Part shown: one piece after another, positions 1-26,576 of the stretch | How the letters are laid out: the number at the start of each line of letters is the position of its first letter | Numbering within the stretch: position 1 is the first letter of the stretch | NCBI GenBank assembly: GCA_050633305.1 | Contig: JBOEGF010000072.1 | Coordinates: 1-29,955, forward strand | DNA length: 29,955 nt | DNA from: Nannocystales bacterium | GTDB lineage: Bacteria > Myxococcota_A > Polyangia > Nannocystales > Nannocystaceae | Direction of reading: 5' to 3' | Notes under the pieces: generated by a model | Told to the model about the DNA's origin: nothing | Databases searched by the model: none | What the model saw: only the letters and a program-made list of their open reading frames with translations | Made by a program: the position numbers and the translations under genes

Positions 1-652
1 GTTTTTCGGGGGCAACTCCAGTCCTCCTTGGCCATCCAGTGCCAGCAGGAGGCGGTCGATCCCGATCGCCCATCCGACCCCGCCCGGGTACGGGCCTCCG
101 CCGGCAACCTGTTTCTGGGTTCCTAGAGCATCGCACTCAACCTCGAAACCAAGCCCCGTGTAGTAGGAGAGCCCTCGTTTGACGGCATCGCGGACTCGAT
201 ACCGCAAACCCACAGTGTCGAGTACGCCGACGAGTTCCTCGCGCACCTTCGGCAACGCGGTGGCGGGGTCCTCTCCGAGGACTTCGACGCCGAACTGAGT
301 GAACTCCCGGTACCGCCCCCTCTGCGGTCGTTCGTACCGGTAGCAACGGGCGACGTAGAACACCTTGTGCGGCCTTGCTCGGTTCTTGCTCCAAGACGCC
401 TTCCACCGGTCTTGGATGATCCCCGTGACTTCGGGGATCAGACAGATCGGCCGACCACGCTTGTCCTCAAACGCGTACATCTGTCCGAGGATGTCCTCGC
501 CCGCTCGCGAGACAAAGGTGTCCTGTCCCCAGATCGAGGGGATCACGACCTCCTCAAAGCCTCGGTTGATGAAGATACCTCCGTACCGAGTCGATCAGGT
601 CGGTGTAGCGTCGGGCCTCGGCCCCCTCAAGAATTCTCGTTCCACGTAGCAT
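1..652 (-). CDS. Compact histidyl-tRNA synthetase-like protein (class II aaRS catalytic core), split by a +1 frameshift near 574-569; 3' end runs off the window
   Basis: Manual translation. Frame A from ATG 652 (SD-like AGGGAG upstream) gives MLRGTRILEGAEARRYTDLIDSVRRYL, with a stop at 556-554. The +1 frame is open from about 594 to 1: INRGFEEVVIPSIW...QMYAFEDKRGRPICLIPEVT...YRYERPQRGRYREFTQFGVE (motif 2)...RGLSYYTG (HisA-like)...GGGPY (HisB-like)...GWAIGIDRL (motif 3). Could be programmed, a pseudogene or a sequencing error. Confidence 0.85.
569..582 (-). promoter_or_regulatory. Candidate prfB-like +1 ribosomal frameshift cassette with a His A-site codon
   Basis: Minus strand reads CGG AGG TAT CTT CAT C: internal SD GGAGG (582-578), 3-nt spacer TAT, CTT (574-572), then CAT (571-569). 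E. coli prfB reads AGG GGG TAT CTT TGA C. Confidence 0.6.
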
Positions 653-771
653 GTGTCGTTCTCTCCCTTGCGCTGCATCAATGCGCACCGGGGATGGACG
701 ACCGACTCTTGTTGATTGGGGGTCCCCGCGCGCACAACCTCGTGCCGCCTGGGACTCGCTTCCCAGACGAC

Positions 772-801
772 CTACGGGTGGAAATGCACCGGGGCCGTCA
801 C
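772..801 (-). CDS. Putative His-containing leader peptide MTAPVHFHP (or MRVTAPVHFHP from ATG 807)
   Basis: GTG ACG GCC CCG GTG CAT TTC CAC CCG TAG starts 7 nt downstream of a candidate -10 and is followed at once by a strong hairpin (771-744). It lies upstream of the HisRS-like gene. Confidence 0.45.
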   Translation of the reverse strand: MTAPVHFHP

Positions 802-808
802 TCTCATT

Positions 809-837
809 TAGATACGGTCGGAGCGGCACTCCGTCAA
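809..837 (-). promoter_or_regulatory. Candidate sigma70-type promoter for the leader and HisRS-like gene
   Basis: TTGACG (837-832)-N17-TATCTA (814-809); good -35, weak -10. Confidence 0.45.
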
Positions 838-3876: not shown

Positions 3877-4574
3877 GGGGTCTCATCGGGAGGACCCGAG
3901 GCATGAAAGAAGCTCTGACGCTGCGGATCGTCACTGAGCTGCACGACGGTGCTGCTCCGAGTCCCGTAGTTCCGGCCCCGATCCAGCACATTGACCCCCT
4001 CGAGCGGAGGGTCGTCACGGTGGGAGAGGAGCTGACGCCATGTCTCCATCGTGGGAAGCCCAGCCTCGGCGAGCGGACGGACCAGCCTCGGCAAGAGCTC
4101 GAGCCGCTTGGACGGCGCCGCGTCCAGGCTCCGCTCGGTGAGCACGTGCAACCCGGGCTGCAACCGATGCCGCGACAGCTTGTGGCCGTCATTCCACACC
4201 AAGTGCGCACTGGTCCGGTCCGCGACGAGCAGGTGGAAGGGGTTGTGAAGCGAGGGCGCCGATAGACTCACCGCGTCCGCGGCATCCACGGCGGACGCAC
4301 CGCGCAGCGCGTCCAGGACAAGCTTTCCTCGCGAACGAGCTTGGGGGTTGGGCGACGGGGTAAACCGGTTCGTCAGACCGGCGAACACTCCAAACGCATT
4401 GACCCCAAGCCAGGTCCCTCCGGCTTGGACGTCGAGCGGGGCAAGCACGCGAACACCGTCGTTGTCCCGCAGCGCCGGGCTCTCCGCGGGGCGCTGCAGG
4501 TTCTCGTCGCGGTTTGCCGCGACGACCAGGGGCGCACCCGCCCACATGGAGACGGCGATGATCAGCGTGCACAC
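3828..4574 (-). CDS. NRDE/TANGO2 family protein
   Basis: N-terminal MCT, ANRDE, GGTWLGVN, SRGKLV, YGTRSST. Confidence 0.92.
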   Translation of the reverse strand: MCTLIIAVSMWAGAPLVVAANRDENLQRPAESPALRDNDGVRVLAPLDVQAGGTWLGVNAFGVFAGLTNRFTPSPNPQARSRGKLVLDALRGASAVDAADAVSLSAPSLHNPFHLLVADRTSAHLVWNDGHKLSRHRLQPGLHVLTERSLDAAPSKRLELLPRLVRPLAEAGLPTMETWRQLLSHRDDPPLEGVNVLDRGRNYGTRSSTVVQLSDDPQRQSFFHASGPPDETPYAAFSDKLRELLAAG

Positions 4575-4579
4575 CGGCG

Positions 4580-6304
4580 CTACGACTCCTCGCTGGATAC
4601 GACCGGAGGCTGCGCAGTCGTGCTGGGAGTCGCGGCCGCCTCCCGGTTGGCCATCTGCTTGCGCGCCTCGTTGTAGCGACGCTTGACGATGTCCCCTGCC
4701 ACTTCACGACCGCCCAGGCCGAACGCGAGCGCGGCGCCCAGACACAACGCGCCGAACAACAGGCCGAACGTCAGCAGCACGAAGTCTTCTGCGACATCAA
4801 GCTGGCGCACGGCCATCGTGAACGCGAACACCAGCACGGCGTACCGGGCGAACTCTCCCATCCATTTGCCGACCTCATCTTCTCCGCGAGCCCGGATCAG
4901 GTCCCGGACGTAGTTGCCGATCGCAAAGCCAATGCCGACGACGAAGGTGGCCACGGCGACGTTCTTGATGATGTAGCCCAAGAACGAGTTGACGTAGGCC
5001 GACCACATCACCAGCTGCAGGGTGGTCAGTGCTTGTGCCACCCCCATGAGGATGACGCCGACTTGCACCGCGAAGCCCAGCATCTCGCTGTACTCGCCCA
5101 AACGGTCTTCACGCTCCGAGAGTTTCTTGAAGCCGAGGTTCTCCATGAAGCGGTCGAGGCCGATGTTGCGCAGGGCCCCCGACACGAGGCGACGCAGCAG
5201 CTGTCCCACAAACACTGCGACCACGACGATCACAACGCCGACGGCGACCTTGGGAAGCAGATTCCAGAACTGCCCCATCATGCCCGTGAGCGGCTCGCTG
5301 AGCGTGGTGAGACCAAGCTCGTTGAGCGCTGCGATCGTGGCTTGAACGACGATGAACACCATCACCGCGGTCGCGACCACGTCGCTCGGGGAGGTTTTCC
5401 CCGTGACGCGATCCAGTTGCACACGCTCGGCGAGCTTGTCGAACCCGAGACCTTCGAGGACCTTGCGAACGACGGCCCGAGCCAGGCGTCCGCCGAACCA
5501 TCCAACCGCGACGAGCAACGCTGCGAAGCCGACCTTGGGGAGCACGCCCACGATGTGGTCGATGGCCCCGTGCAGCGGTTCCGCAATGGGTGTGATCTCC
5601 AGAGCTTCGAATGCACCGGCGATTCCCACCAGCATGATCAGCCAGAAGATGACGCGTCCGACGGTGCCCGAGAATGCGGGTTGCTTGTCCCCATCTTCCG
5701 CGAGTTCGGCAAATCGAGCATCCACCTTCAAGCCGTCGAGCGCGGCGGAAGTGACCTTCCGAAGGATCTCTCCGGCGAAGTACGCGACGATCAGGATCAA
5801 CGCGGCTTTGCCGACACGCGGCAGCGCTTGGACCACCGTGTCGACCAGGCGCTCCAGTGGGCCCGCGACCTGCGAGAGGCCGGCGAACTCCAGCACGCCG
5901 ACGACCACCAGCAACATCACGATGTAGTAGGCGACCTGAGCGATGAAGCGCTCGATCGCGCCCTCATCTCCCTCGGACTTTTTTCGGTCGCTGAGCAACA
6001 TCGACACGCCGAGCTTCTCCGCGGCGCGGTTGTCGAGGTCGGTGCGCGAGAGCAGCTGGAAGACCGCGTAGCTGATCATCTTCGCGACGATCCAGCCGCC
6101 GATGAACAACAGGATCGCCAAGAGGATCCGTGCGCCCAACTGAACAGCCGGGTTGTCGGCCATGAGCCCGAGCTGCGAGAGGCCATCGTCGGTTGCGGCG
6201 GGCGCAGGCGCAGCCTGGACCACAACCGGCACCATCAGGGCGACCATGCCAGCGAGGTACGGGAACAGAGCGGAGGTCGCGGGGAGTGGAGATCTTGAGG
6301 TCAT
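4580..6304 (-). CDS. Polytopic membrane protein with conserved TM-helix repeats (CmpX/MscS-associated TM_helix family)
   Basis: Repeated LP(K/R)V-hydrophobic helix-G-amphipathic units and C-terminal ALAFGLGGRE; no obvious MscS beta domain. Confidence 0.75.
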   Translation of the reverse strand: MTSRSPLPATSALFPYLAGMVALMVPVVVQAAPAPAATDDGLSQLGLMADNPAVQLGARILLAILLFIGGWIVAKMISYAVFQLLSRTDLDNRAAEKLGVSMLLSDRKKSEGDEGAIERFIAQVAYYIVMLLVVVGVLEFAGLSQVAGPLERLVDTVVQALPRVGKAALILIVAYFAGEILRKVTSAALDGLKVDARFAELAEDGDKQPAFSGTVGRVIFWLIMLVGIAGAFEALEITPIAEPLHGAIDHIVGVLPKVGFAALLVAVGWFGGRLARAVVRKVLEGLGFDKLAERVQLDRVTGKTSPSDVVATAVMVFIVVQATIAALNELGLTTLSEPLTGMMGQFWNLLPKVAVGVVIVVVAVFVGQLLRRLVSGALRNIGLDRFMENLGFKKLSEREDRLGEYSEMLGFAVQVGVILMGVAQALTTLQLVMWSAYVNSFLGYIIKNVAVATFVVGIGFAIGNYVRDLIRARGEDEVGKWMGEFARYAVLVFAFTMAVRQLDVAEDFVLLTFGLLFGALCLGAALAFGLGGREVAGDIVKRRYNEARKQMANREAAATPSTTAQPPVVSSEES

Positions 6305-6441: not shown

Positions 6442-6517
<76 letters not shown>

Positions 6518-23963: not shown

Positions 23964-25463
23964 TCAGACCGTGAACGTCGTCGGCTCATCCGAAATGGTG
24001 ACCTCAGACCCGTCGTAGCGGATTCGCTTGGCCTTGTCGTCGACCACGGAAAGGATCGAGACGGGTCGTCGCCACACTCGCTCGAGGTTCCGTAGCGTGT
24101 CGCGAGCGTAGTCCAGCTTGAGGTCATCCCCCTCGTGACGGTGCCCCAGCAGCAACTCCCCGCGGTTGAGGTCGTTCGCATCCGTGACGTAGATGAACGG
24201 CTGCCCGAAGTTGGTCAGCTGTGAAAGCAGCTTGGTCTTGACTTTCTCGAACTCGCGCGTCTCGATCTCGAGTTGTCCACTGCGTCGGTTCTCGGCAAAC
24301 GTGAAGAACTTGTTGTCGCGGCAGAAGTCGAGCGTGAAGAACTCGTCGATGAACGTGACGTCGTTGTAGAGCTTGCGGACCTCGAAGATACGCTCGCGGC
24401 CGAGTCCGAGTTCCTTGTCCCAGTGGCGACGCTCCTCGCTGTCGGTGCAGTTCTCCCACTCGGGTCCGAACTTCCCTTTGTTCCATCGGTCTTCGATGTC
24501 GCGAAACAGCTCCACGCCGAGCTTGTAGGGGTTGAGCTGGCCCGGTGCGGTCGCAAAGACACTGGAGACGACGTCTGCGTAGTCGATGATCTCCGGGGCC
24601 TTCAGGGCACGCTCGGTCATGATCCGGGAGTGCCAGTAGCTGGCCCACCCCTCGTTCATGATCTTGGTCTGCATCTGCGGCAGGAAGTAGTAGGCCTCCT
24701 CGCGGATGATGCCGAGCACATCGGCCTCCCAGGACTCGAGGGGCGCGTGCTGGATCAGGAACCCTAGAACGTCCCGTTCGGGGCGTTGCGGGATCTTTCG
24801 CCGACTGGCCTCCTTCTCGGCCGCCGCCCGTTCCTTCTGCTCGGCGATGAACGCCGGTGGGTTGACGTAGTCCTCGAGGTAGCCGCGAACGTTTCGGAGC
24901 CGACCATGCGGGTCGTCATCGGCCGCAGCGTCGTCGCCGTCGTCGCGGCCTCGCTCGCGGACCGGCGCCCACGGATCGATGAGGTTGTCGATCGACAGGC
25001 AGGTGTCGATGAAGGACTCGACGGTGGAGACGCCATGACGGTCCATGTAGCGGCGGACTCGGGCCGCGCTGTTGGCCATCAGGTCGATCATTCGCCGGTC
25101 GGTCCGGGCGAAGTAATTGTTGTTCTTGAAGAAGTCGTTGTGGCCGTAGACGTGGGCCATCACGAGCTTCTGATCGACGTAGCTATTGCCTTCGAGCAGA
25201 TAGGCGTAGCAAGGGTCGGTGTTGATGACCAACTCGTAGATCTTCGAGAGCCCGTAGGTGTGGCTCTTGATCATGTGGTCGTACTCCATGCCGAACCTCC
25301 AGTGCGGATACCGGACGGGGAAGCCGCCATAGCTGGCGATCTCGCACATCTCTCGGTAGTCCAGCATCTCGAAGATCTGGGTGGAGTAGTCCAGGCCGTA
25401 CTCGTCGGCGTAGCCCTGGATCTCGATCTGCATTTCGCGGAGGTAATCCGGAATGGGAGCCAC
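23964..25463 (-). CDS. spoVR: SpoVR/YcgB family protein
   Basis: [54 protein letters not shown]. Confidence 0.93.
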
Positions 25464-26576
25464 TTAGCGACCGCCTTTGAGGAACTCTTTGATGGAGTCC
25501 ATGATGTCGTCTTTGCCCGTGATCTCCGAGGTGATGAGCTTCTCGTCACTGGGGAACGCCGAGCGGATATCCTTGATGAACTGGCCGGAGCCGTAGGGGC
25601 TCTCGACCTGCCCGTAGCCGAACTGGTTGCACGCCGGGATGAGCGTGTTCTTGAGCAGGCTGACGCAATTGCCGGTGTCGTCGACAGACCAGTTGTCGCC
25701 GTCGGAGAAGTGGAACGCGTAGATGTTCCAGCTCTCGGGCGGGAACTCCTTCTCGATCAGCTCGGAGCAGACTTTGTAGGCCGAGCTGATCATCGTGCCG
25801 CCGGACTCCCGGGTGCTGAAGAAGACGTCGCGCTCCACCACGCGAGCGGTCGCGTCATGAATGATGTACCGGGACTCGAGCCCCTGGTACTGGCTGCGCA
25901 GCCACGTGTCGATCCAGAAGGATTCGATGCGGACGATTTCCTTCTGCTCATCACCCATCGAGCCGGAGACATCCATCATGTAGATGATGACGGCGTTGCT
26001 CTGCGGCTTGGGATCGGTCTTCCAGGAGCGGTAGCGCTTGTCCTCGCGCACCGGCGTGATGATCGGCTTGCCGGGCATGTACGTGCCGCTGGCCAGCTGC
26101 CGTTTCAGCGCTCGCTTGAAGGTGGCCTTGAACGAGCGCAGCGACTCGGGGCCGGTGCTCCGCAGGCTGACGTAGCGGTCTTTGTCGGTATGCAGGCTGT
26201 CGCTGCCCTTGGGCTCGATGCGGGGCAACCCGAGTTCTTCGCCCATGATCGAGGCAAGCTCGTCGAGCGTGACGTCGACCTCGAGCGTCTTGCCGCCTTC
26301 GCCCTCGCCCGCCTTGCCGGCCCCCTCGCCCTCTTGCCCCTGTCCCTGACCGACAGGATCGCCAGGCTCGCCGTCCCCCTGGCCAACGCCGGACTGCTCC
26401 CCACCGCCCAAGGTGAACCGCGGGATGTCAATCGAGGGCATGGGGATGGACACGGTGTCCTTGCCCTTTCGAGCAACCATGTCTCCGCGCGAAATGTACT
26501 TACGCAGGTTGTCGCGAATCTTCCCTCGGACGATTTCCCGAAACCGGCTGTGATCCTTGTCGATACGTGAGATCAT
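25464..26576 (-). CDS. yhbH: YeaH/YhbH (DUF444) family protein
   Basis: [13 protein letters not shown], Gly-rich GQGDG linker, [33 protein letters not shown]; stop abuts the spoVR start. Confidence 0.9.

Follow-up and report, generated by a model that had tools for sequence, protein, structure and literature searches.

A probable prfB-like +1 frameshift site with a histidine codon as candidate sensor in genes for core-only proteins like histidyl-tRNA synthetase

A stretch of 29,955 nucleotides from a Nannocystales bacterium (GenBank assembly GCA_050633305.1, contig JBOEGF010000072.1, here C72; 'the window') carries on its minus strand a gene resembling the catalytic core of histidyl-tRNA synthetase (HisRS), which we call mini-HisRS and whose reading frame is broken after codon 27. 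The window is an entire contig of a draft genome of 90 contigs, 11 Mb and 66% G+C. The break lies at a site built like the programmed +1 frameshift site of prfB, the gene for release factor 2 (RF2), with a histidine codon in the place of the stop codon. We regard it as practically certain that the break is real and conserved. Judged from sequence comparison, it is very probably decoded by a +1 slip at (C/G)UU-CAY, and this slip is likely to act as a feedback that depends on histidyl-tRNA, His-tRNA(His).

The frame break, the probable slip site and the protein

The gene is arranged as follows.

661 to 667, minus strand: likely Shine-Dalgarno (SD) sequence GGGAGAG for the start at 652, which in the minimum-energy fold of this one sequence would pair with an upstream CCCC
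554 to 652, minus strand: open reading frame (ORF) of frame 0, from ATG (652-650) through 32 codons to TGA (556-554), reading MLRGTRILEGAEARRYTDLIDSVRRYLHQPRL
595 to 597, minus strand: TGA that shuts the +1 frame upstream, the 5' limit for the shift
578 to 582, minus strand: internal SD-like GGAGG, 3 nt ahead of the P-site codon, with the same CGGAGG in the genome's prfB
575 to 577, minus strand: spacer and E-site codon TAT, the spacer being 3 nt long in all broken loci
572 to 574, minus strand: P-site codon CTT (Leu), whose tRNA could pair again with TTC once slipped by +1
569 to 571, minus strand: A-site codon CAT (His) of frame 0, the proposed sensor, a His codon in 51 of 51 broken loci; the C at 568 ends the quoted site
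1 to 570, minus strand: gene body in the +1 frame, ATC (570-568) onwards, 190 codons with class II motifs 1-3, HisA and HisB, its 3' end cut by the contig end

Codons 1-27 of the frame-0 ORF encode the N-terminus of the enzyme, including the start of the motif-1 helix, and translation without a shift yields a peptide of 32 amino acids. From 594 the +1 frame of the minus strand has no stop as far as base 1, the end of the contig (198 codons), and the Pfam model tRNA-synt_His matches this stretch (3e-19). The initial annotation had proposed that exactly a +1 shift is required between stops at 597-595 and 556-554, that the overlap reads CGG AGG TAT CTT CAT C, and that the joined product regains a proper class II motif-1 helix. 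ORF reading confirmed the shift and its limits, bases 583-568 carry the overlap sequence as written, and the joined product proved colinear with unbroken homologues and with HisRS. When CTTC is decoded in one step, a product of 217 amino acids results (P0001). Its alignment with P0034, a homologue that is naturally unbroken, covers 211 residues with 56% identity and is free of gaps, also at the junction. The layout is that of a prfB-type gene: frame 0 stops five codons past CTT-CAT, and the +1 frame offers 190 open codons.

An indel over the site, which the initial annotation had wanted checked, was not seen. Logan contigs of the metagenome run X1 span 413-587 and 582-732 with no gaps and few single-nucleotide differences; this run is possibly the source sample itself, and its independent support is correspondingly weak.

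The 3' end of the genome's 16S rRNA reads ..GGATCACCTCCTT (the terminus is also quoted as ..CACCUCCUU and ..GGATCACCTCCTTTCT) and is complementary to the internal SD. The prfB gene of the same genome, on contig C6, has the site CGG AGG CAT CTT TGA C, where frame 0 runs ..ELRRHL and then stops. The two sites of this genome agree in the SD, in its spacing and in the P-site codon and differ only in the spacer and the A-site codon; the likeness to prfB was borne out, and is closer than had been claimed. A tRNA-Leu(GAG) gene is present in the genome, and its product, slipped onto UUC, would be held by two Watson-Crick pairs and one G-U pair. The A site of mini-HisRS holds CAT (His), not the UGA of prfB sites: the site would work like prfB, yet it is not a prfB site.

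The motif GGAGGNNNCTTCAY occurs once in the window against an expectation of 0.03 (3 of 100 shuffles reach one copy). Downstream of the SD-like element the +1 frame lacks a canonical start codon, and the sites have no homopolymer run in common. A second genomic GGAGG-N3-GTT-CAC followed by a long +1 frame, on contig C17, is not part of a HisRS-like gene and was set aside as a chance match.

The product is related to HisRS but shorter. The NCBIfam model hisS (TIGR00442) matched at 1e-41 to 1e-48 with 140.5-164 bits, below its curated cut-off of 286.75; the alignment to the model is continuous across the junction (residues 2-129) and ends at motif 3. The HisZ model matched more weakly than hisS (74-99 bits against a cut-off of 271.65), and hisG was absent from the Pfam matches of neighbouring genes (100 ORFs from 23 loci including the window, and 15 further ORFs of the window). 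HisRS of Thermus thermophilus (PDB sequence) was matched with an E value of 1e-30 in two blocks, residues 2-150 with its residues 8-159 and residues 130-209 with its residues 233-322, indicating that the insertion domain (about 160-232) and the anticodon-binding domain are absent. The protein thus departs from the architecture of a full-length HisRS and keeps the class II core fold with motifs 1-3, HisA and HisB.

An AF2 model, computed from an alignment of 56 rows headed by the unbroken P0034, reached a pLDDT of 90.4 and a pTM of 0.87, and its helix 10-29, the motif-1 helix, crosses the junction. The best-matching PDB folds were the HisRS of Escherichia coli and T. thermophilus (TMq 0.82-0.89), and HisZ came at rank 39. 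Invariant columns of the family comprise motif 2 (RYERPQ.GRYREF.Q), the stretch RGL.YY, GGG.Y and motif 3, which we take to be the histidine and ATP sites of HisRS. A regular hisS lies on contig C10 of the same genome (355.6 bits against the cut-off of 286.75). The best explanation is that the gene encodes a mini-HisRS of about 215-225 amino acids with all substrate-binding motifs, an accessory paralogue beside the normal hisS. We lean towards its being a true tRNA-His ligase.

Conservation of the break and the leader region

DNA of relatives was gathered by four routes, namely a metagenome scan (44 loci, one of them false), a viral scan (14 loci), one GenBank phage and a genome search; the scans used the narrower sub-alignment A2, as A1 (24 rows) was too diverse. 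The break was found at the same aligned place in 51 of 60 related loci (44 of 52 after removal of duplicates), and nine loci (eight non-duplicate) were unbroken. The P-site codon of the broken loci is CTT in 28 and GTT in 23, and the A-site codon is CAT in 34, CAC in 17 and nothing else. The spacer is 3 nt long in all 51, and its first base is T in 47. An SD-like core, defined as GGAG, GAGG, GGGG or AGGA ending 3-4 nt ahead of the P codon, is present in 49 of the 51; the corresponding columns of the unbroken loci hold neither such a core nor a His codon (0 of 8). Frame 0 ends directly 3' of the His codon in 26 broken loci and one to four codons later in the other 25. The initial annotation had asked whether SD-N3-CTT-CA(T/C) is kept in homologous DNA: the position of the break and CA(T/C) were kept in every broken locus, and the P-site codon has to be widened from CTT to CTT or GTT.

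The codon after the slip is ATC, ATT or ATA (Ile) in 34 broken loci and ACN (Thr) in 17, and never a start codon. At this position unbroken homologues carry I, F, M, T, S, K or R, whereas broken genes carry I or T, so that CAY is not imposed by the protein. In locus L109 a TAG of the +1 frame abuts the TTC upstream and a TGA of frame 0 abuts the CAC downstream; a shift is therefore possible on GTT-CAC only.

Among 72 genomes of the same family the gene occurs in two, that of the window and G008; the single orthologue, in G008, has 46% protein identity, the same break and the site CGG GAG TGC CTT CAT C. No copy was found in a sample of 400 other genomes of the phylum. A scan of genome contigs with the +1-frame piece returned, among the matches listed, only canonical HisRS genes of other phyla.

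A protein search returned 1,774 predicted relatives of 108-347 amino acids, the best 120 of which were classified. In 94 of these 120 the start was placed upstream in the +1 frame and the site read as F(I/T), with GG two residues earlier in 77; such a ..GG..F(I/T).. pattern results from translating GGNGG-NNN-NTT-CAY-C in the +1 frame. Ten start downstream of the site. Seven were called unbroken by script and P0116 by eye, and their N-termini begin M(L/I)RGT... The remaining nine are unclassified: the anchor search missed four and misplaced four, and the ninth is P0009.

Selection was estimated as the ratio of non-synonymous to synonymous substitution rates (dN/dS) by the Nei-Gojobori method in 10 pairs, for the upstream 27 codons and the downstream 177 codons. 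The upstream part in frame 0 gave 0.02-0.78 over the 10 pairs (0.28 for the window against G008), and the downstream part in frame +1 gave 0.04-0.38 in nine pairs, the estimate for L114/L130 having failed, probably through an indel. Wrong-frame controls were mostly above 1; two of the 10, L112/L116 and L116/L133, had an upstream control below the frame-0 value. By these estimates both halves of the gene are under purifying selection, each in its own frame.

In an unrooted FastTree phylogeny of 153 rows (126 broken, 13 unbroken, 14 unlabelled) the broken state stands on both sides of the deepest splits, and the unbroken state requires at least seven changes, three of them forced by well-supported branches. 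The broken device appears to be ancestral to this large family of core-only HisRS genes.

Upstream of the gene the window holds a leader with three features.

832 to 837, minus strand: possible -35 box TTGACG, with TATCTA (814-809) 17 bases downstream; a lead only
772 to 807, minus strand: leader mini-ORF MRVTAPVHFHP, from ATG (807-805) with the His codons CAT (786-784) and CAC (780-778) to the stop TAG (774-772)
746 to 769, minus strand: predicted leader hairpin CGTCTGGGA-AGCGAG-TCCCAGGCG, directly 3' of the leader stop

All 10 loci (nine non-duplicate) of the two bacterial-type clades for which 240 nt or more of upstream sequence was available have a His-codon leader ORF, which stops 78-131 nt ahead of the gene start. 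The peptides of the other loci are listed here; the sequence of L134 begins within an HHH run.

G008: ..AVHQHA
L119 and L123: ..GKHHHR
L124: ..GMHHHR
L129: ..LVHHHR
L138 and L139: MRSSRMHHRHG
L143: MRPPMHHVR
L148: ..AELHHHR

In the phage-type clade 37 broken loci offered 140 nt or more of upstream DNA, and only two of them have such an ORF (L111 and L133, both among tRNA genes); none of the nine unbroken loci is preceded by one. The leader is thus a short upstream ORF rich in the regulatory codon, and these ORFs would tie expression of the gene to the decoding of His codons, as sequence-based evidence independent of the slip site.

The stem of the window's hairpin is identical in G008, and the hairpin has one true copy in the genome at up to two mismatches (three other matches are unrelated). 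In the consensus fold computed for the L119 group, the His codons pair with a segment further downstream, beside an invariant helix of 8 bp; just two of the fold's 26 pairs show compensation among four sequences. The SD of the bacterial copies tends to be covered by the last leader hairpin, as would suit control at the level of translation. Rfam searches of the window's first 2.4 kb and of the G008 locus at E values up to 1 gave no credible match (the lone match, to a small RNA model at 22 bits against a gathering threshold of 79, lies 3' of the gene in G008), and six further loci gave no match.

The promoter-like pair is kept in G008 as TTGACG-N17-TATCTC (5' region, L007 1225-1330). A consensus scan of positions 1-1100 of the window found no sigma-70 promoter and no intrinsic terminator. 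The sequence GGCAC-N5-TTGTGC 3' of the hairpin resembles a -24/-12 promoter (GG-N11-GC) only loosely.

A proposed mechanism and its alternatives

We propose that, after codon 27, GGAGG would pair with the 3' end of 16S rRNA across a 3-nt spacer from a P-site CUU, with CAU in the A site. With ample His-tRNA(His), CAU would be read and the ribosome would stop five codons later, releasing the 32-residue peptide. With scarce His-tRNA(His), the empty A site and the pull of the SD-anti-SD pairing would let the tRNA-Leu slip from CUU to UUC, and the full enzyme would be made; by presumably raising His-tRNA(His), it would complete a negative feedback of the kind known from RF2. In the window the leader mini-ORF, with its two His codons, and the conserved hairpin would form a second layer acting in the same direction at the level of transcript or initiation. 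We infer the ribosomal nature of the shift and the dependence of its rate on His-tRNA(His) from the anatomy and conservation of the site. The initial annotation had suggested a backup HisRS that would be completed only under a shortage of charged tRNA-His, and the His-codon leaders of the bacterial copies lend this indirect support.

Extended to the whole family, this proposal amounts to an 'aminoacyl-tRNA gauge' derived from the RF2 cassette, in which a synthetase-like enzyme is completed only when His-tRNA(His) fails to fill the A site. We somewhat favour this wider reading, in which the gauge would be ancestral, with a His leader switch stacked on it in bacteria and tRNA arrays beside tRNA-His in phages, and would be the first known +1 frameshift of an aminoacyl-tRNA synthetase (aaRS) gene to sense its product through a sense codon.

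The frameshift might instead be real and constitutive, fixing a low yield of enzyme, with the His codon merely slow as one read by a single low-abundance tRNA. Unbroken relatives work without the break and fixed-ratio frameshifts are common in phages, both of which fit such an arrangement. It accords poorly with a His codon in 51 of 51 sites and no other slow codon, in a gene that is itself HisRS-like, and with the His-codon leader ORFs of the bacterial copies; the same cassette, moreover, serves as a sensor in the genome's own prfB. We consider a constitutive shift unlikely. Another possibility keeps the sensor and changes what it reads: tRNA-His itself (its amount, its damage by defence nucleases, or its G-1 or queuosine status), as part of a translation-rescue or counter-defence module of giant phages. 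Many copies do lie on viral contigs, beside tRNA-His in arrays of up to 33 tRNAs per 8 kb, and long tRNA arrays of cyanobacteria respond to translational stress (PMC8421152). The clade of the window, however, is chromosomal, without arrays and with classical His-leader ORFs, and the tRNA-His genes of the arrays are for the most part canonical in appearance. Sensing of tRNA-His integrity is a plausible role where a copy lies in an array, and a less plausible one for the chromosomal copy of the window; overall we judge it quite unlikely.

Two separate products, the 32-residue frame-0 peptide and an N-truncated enzyme initiated internally from GGAGG by translational coupling, would agree with the position of GGAGG 7 nt ahead of the ATC at 570-568 and with the habit of gene callers, and of the GenBank record of phage Phosso (below), of annotating the +1-frame coding sequence (CDS) only. 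But no ATG, GTG or TTG of the +1 frame is within reach, the post-slip codon being one for Ile or Thr, and the 27 upstream codons are colinear with HisRS, form the motif-1 helix and are under purifying selection, making internal initiation very improbable. The draft state of the genome, in 90 contigs with the gene at a contig end, would invite the view that the gene is a pseudogene in decay or that an indel arose in assembly or sequencing, and transcriptional slippage could also join the frames. These are contradicted by the data and hardly credible: the same break recurs in 51 loci of many assemblies including that of a cultured phage, both frames are selected, other contigs show no indel, and the sites share no homopolymer run on which a polymerase could slip.

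Several observations weigh against a shift governed by His-tRNA(His), which we nevertheless prefer. As just set out, the shift could be constitutive, and, as unbroken relatives show, function does not require the break. After a slip from GTT only two of three pairs are kept. Two of the 51 broken loci (L126 and L157) lack a recognisable SD-like core, and P0009 ('..GGVFS..'), seen as a predicted protein, may carry a codon other than His at the site. The loci were found through two peptide patterns, include near-copies and sample part of the family. The leader structures come from two to four sequences with little covariation, the window's copy of the gene is cut by the contig end, its clade has GGGPY as HisB motif (protein residues about 184-188) where most relatives have GGGRY, and the charging of tRNA-His is deduced from active-site motifs only. 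Finally, the bare motif is not enriched in the 11-Mb genome (13 copies against about 12 expected from base composition). Among these 13, the mini-HisRS copy is the one that joins a frame-0 stop within eight codons to a +1 frame open for at least 100 codons, and the weight consequently rests on placement and conservation.

The proposed device resembles several known systems in part. With prfB it shares a frame-0 ORF of about 25-30 codons, an internal SD, a 3-nt spacer, a slipping CUU and a slow A-site codon dependent on the gene's own product. It differs in that a sense codon (His), and with it an aminoacyl-tRNA, takes the A-site place that in prfB belongs to a stop codon and a protein factor, that the P-site codon may be GUU, that the gene is aaRS-like and that many copies are in phages. 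+1 sites at hungry codons or codons of rare tRNAs are known from the yeast Ty1 element (CUU-AGG-C) and from starvation-induced frameshifting in E. coli. There, too, a CUU slips in the P site while the aminoacyl-tRNA for the sense codon that follows is in short supply, whereas mini-HisRS genes add an SD stimulator, occur in bacteria and phages, and have a hungry codon cognate to the encoded enzyme, which would make a feedback loop and not a fixed ratio.

The leaders recall attenuation of the hisL type, in which a short upstream ORF ending in His codons (here HFH, HQH, HHH, HHRH or HH) is followed by alternative hairpins; they differ in having two or three His codons only, no Rfam match and no clear U-tract terminator, and in the second His sensor within the gene. 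As a protein, mini-HisRS shares with hisS and HisZ products the class II core, motifs 1-3 and the histidine-specific HisA and HisB, and differs in being about half as long, without insertion and anticodon-binding domains, and below both curated cut-offs. Many relatives, unlike the copy of the window, are embedded in tRNA arrays like the L-arrays of PMC8421152; in its text and in the accessible part of one supplement, no HisRS-like array gene is named.

Regulation of aaRS genes is known to act through T-boxes, attenuators and autorepression of transcription or translation; we know of no case that involves recoding. Programmed +1 frameshifting in bacteria is, to our knowledge, essentially a matter of one gene, prfB. 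No description of a frameshifted HisRS gene came up in full-text literature searches, and the words 'histidyl' and 'tRNA synthetase' were not found in the accessible part of the recoding review PMC5009743. Table 2 of the GeneTack survey (Antonov 2013, PMC3711429) contains a +1 cluster named without further specification as 'tRNA synthetase', which it assigns to phase variation.

What we describe is probably +1 recoding of the prfB type in which a cognate sense codon acts as sensor, here in a bacterial chromosome and in phages. If so, the logic of prfB, in which a product clears its own sensor codon, would be general, and the cassette would be a natural, portable sensor for one species of charged tRNA. 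Hundreds of database entries for 'HisRS' or 'HisZ' fragments of about 190 amino acids with wrong starts would be redefined, that of Phosso included. The findings also raise the question of what role a core-only HisRS has in giant phages that carry their own tRNA-His.

Chromosomal, phage and array settings

The neighbours of the gene in the window (an AhpC/TSA redoxin, a sigma-54 activator, argininosuccinate lyase, a mechanosensitive-channel protein, SpoVR and DUF444) are those of an ordinary chromosome; the SpoVR-like and DUF444 genes are adjacent (23967-26576). The sole tRNA gene of the window, for tRNA-Met, is at 6443-6517, 6 kb away, and the genome has no long tRNA array; the DNA past the 3' end of the gene is unassembled. 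At that end the contig of run X1 diverges from the window before base 21 (136 different letters), and a near-identical database protein, P0002, extends 8 residues past the window's gene end. The last codons of the gene may be strain-variable or an artefact of the assembly end. Loci L119, L129 and L139 are chromosomal as well.

Many relatives lie on viral contigs of 360-578 kb. The array-borne copies stand among 6-33 tRNA genes (up to 33 per 8 kb) with tRNA-His adjoining. In the cultured Sinorhizobium phage Phosso (PV764938.1, 469 kb), tRNA-His is followed by the gene, whose site reads CGA GGT TGT CTT CAT CGA AGC TGA. The record gives only a +1-frame 'histidyl-tRNA synthetase' CDS (4096-4686, equal to L153 2477-3067), with the frameshift unannotated, and this CDS starts at a +1-frame ATG inside the true N-terminal region.

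Most tRNA-His genes of the arrays look canonical, with G-1, C73 and CCA. Phage arrays also hold a second type of tRNA with a GTG anticodon (L110 2918-2991, L111 2208-2281, L131 4639-4712), which lacks the G-1/C73 pair, has T or A at -1 and G or A as discriminator, and adjoins a canonical tRNA-His with G-1, C73 and an encoded CCA. In the genome of the window the canonical tRNA-His is on contig C1, and ARAGORN reported two more tRNA-His(GTG), at C13 26362-26434, with an odd D-arm, and at C17 17351-17423, which is doubtful.

Directly 3' of the mini-HisRS gene of G008 (L007 2566-3566) lies a pair of genes for a kinase (P-loop, AAA_33) and a homologue of the Thg1-like tRNA-His guanylyltransferase. 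The same pair is found in the window's genome on C17 at about 158.6-159.9 kb (L108), away from mini-HisRS. A link between Thg1 and mini-HisRS was considered and not retained, as no specific link was apparent and Thg1 occurs in 34 of the 72 family genomes. The region 3' of the G008 gene (L007 2090-2440) further contains GAAAAGTCTGCTTCG.. and GGTCAGCAGAAG.. as short tandem repeats, and a stretch masked as N.

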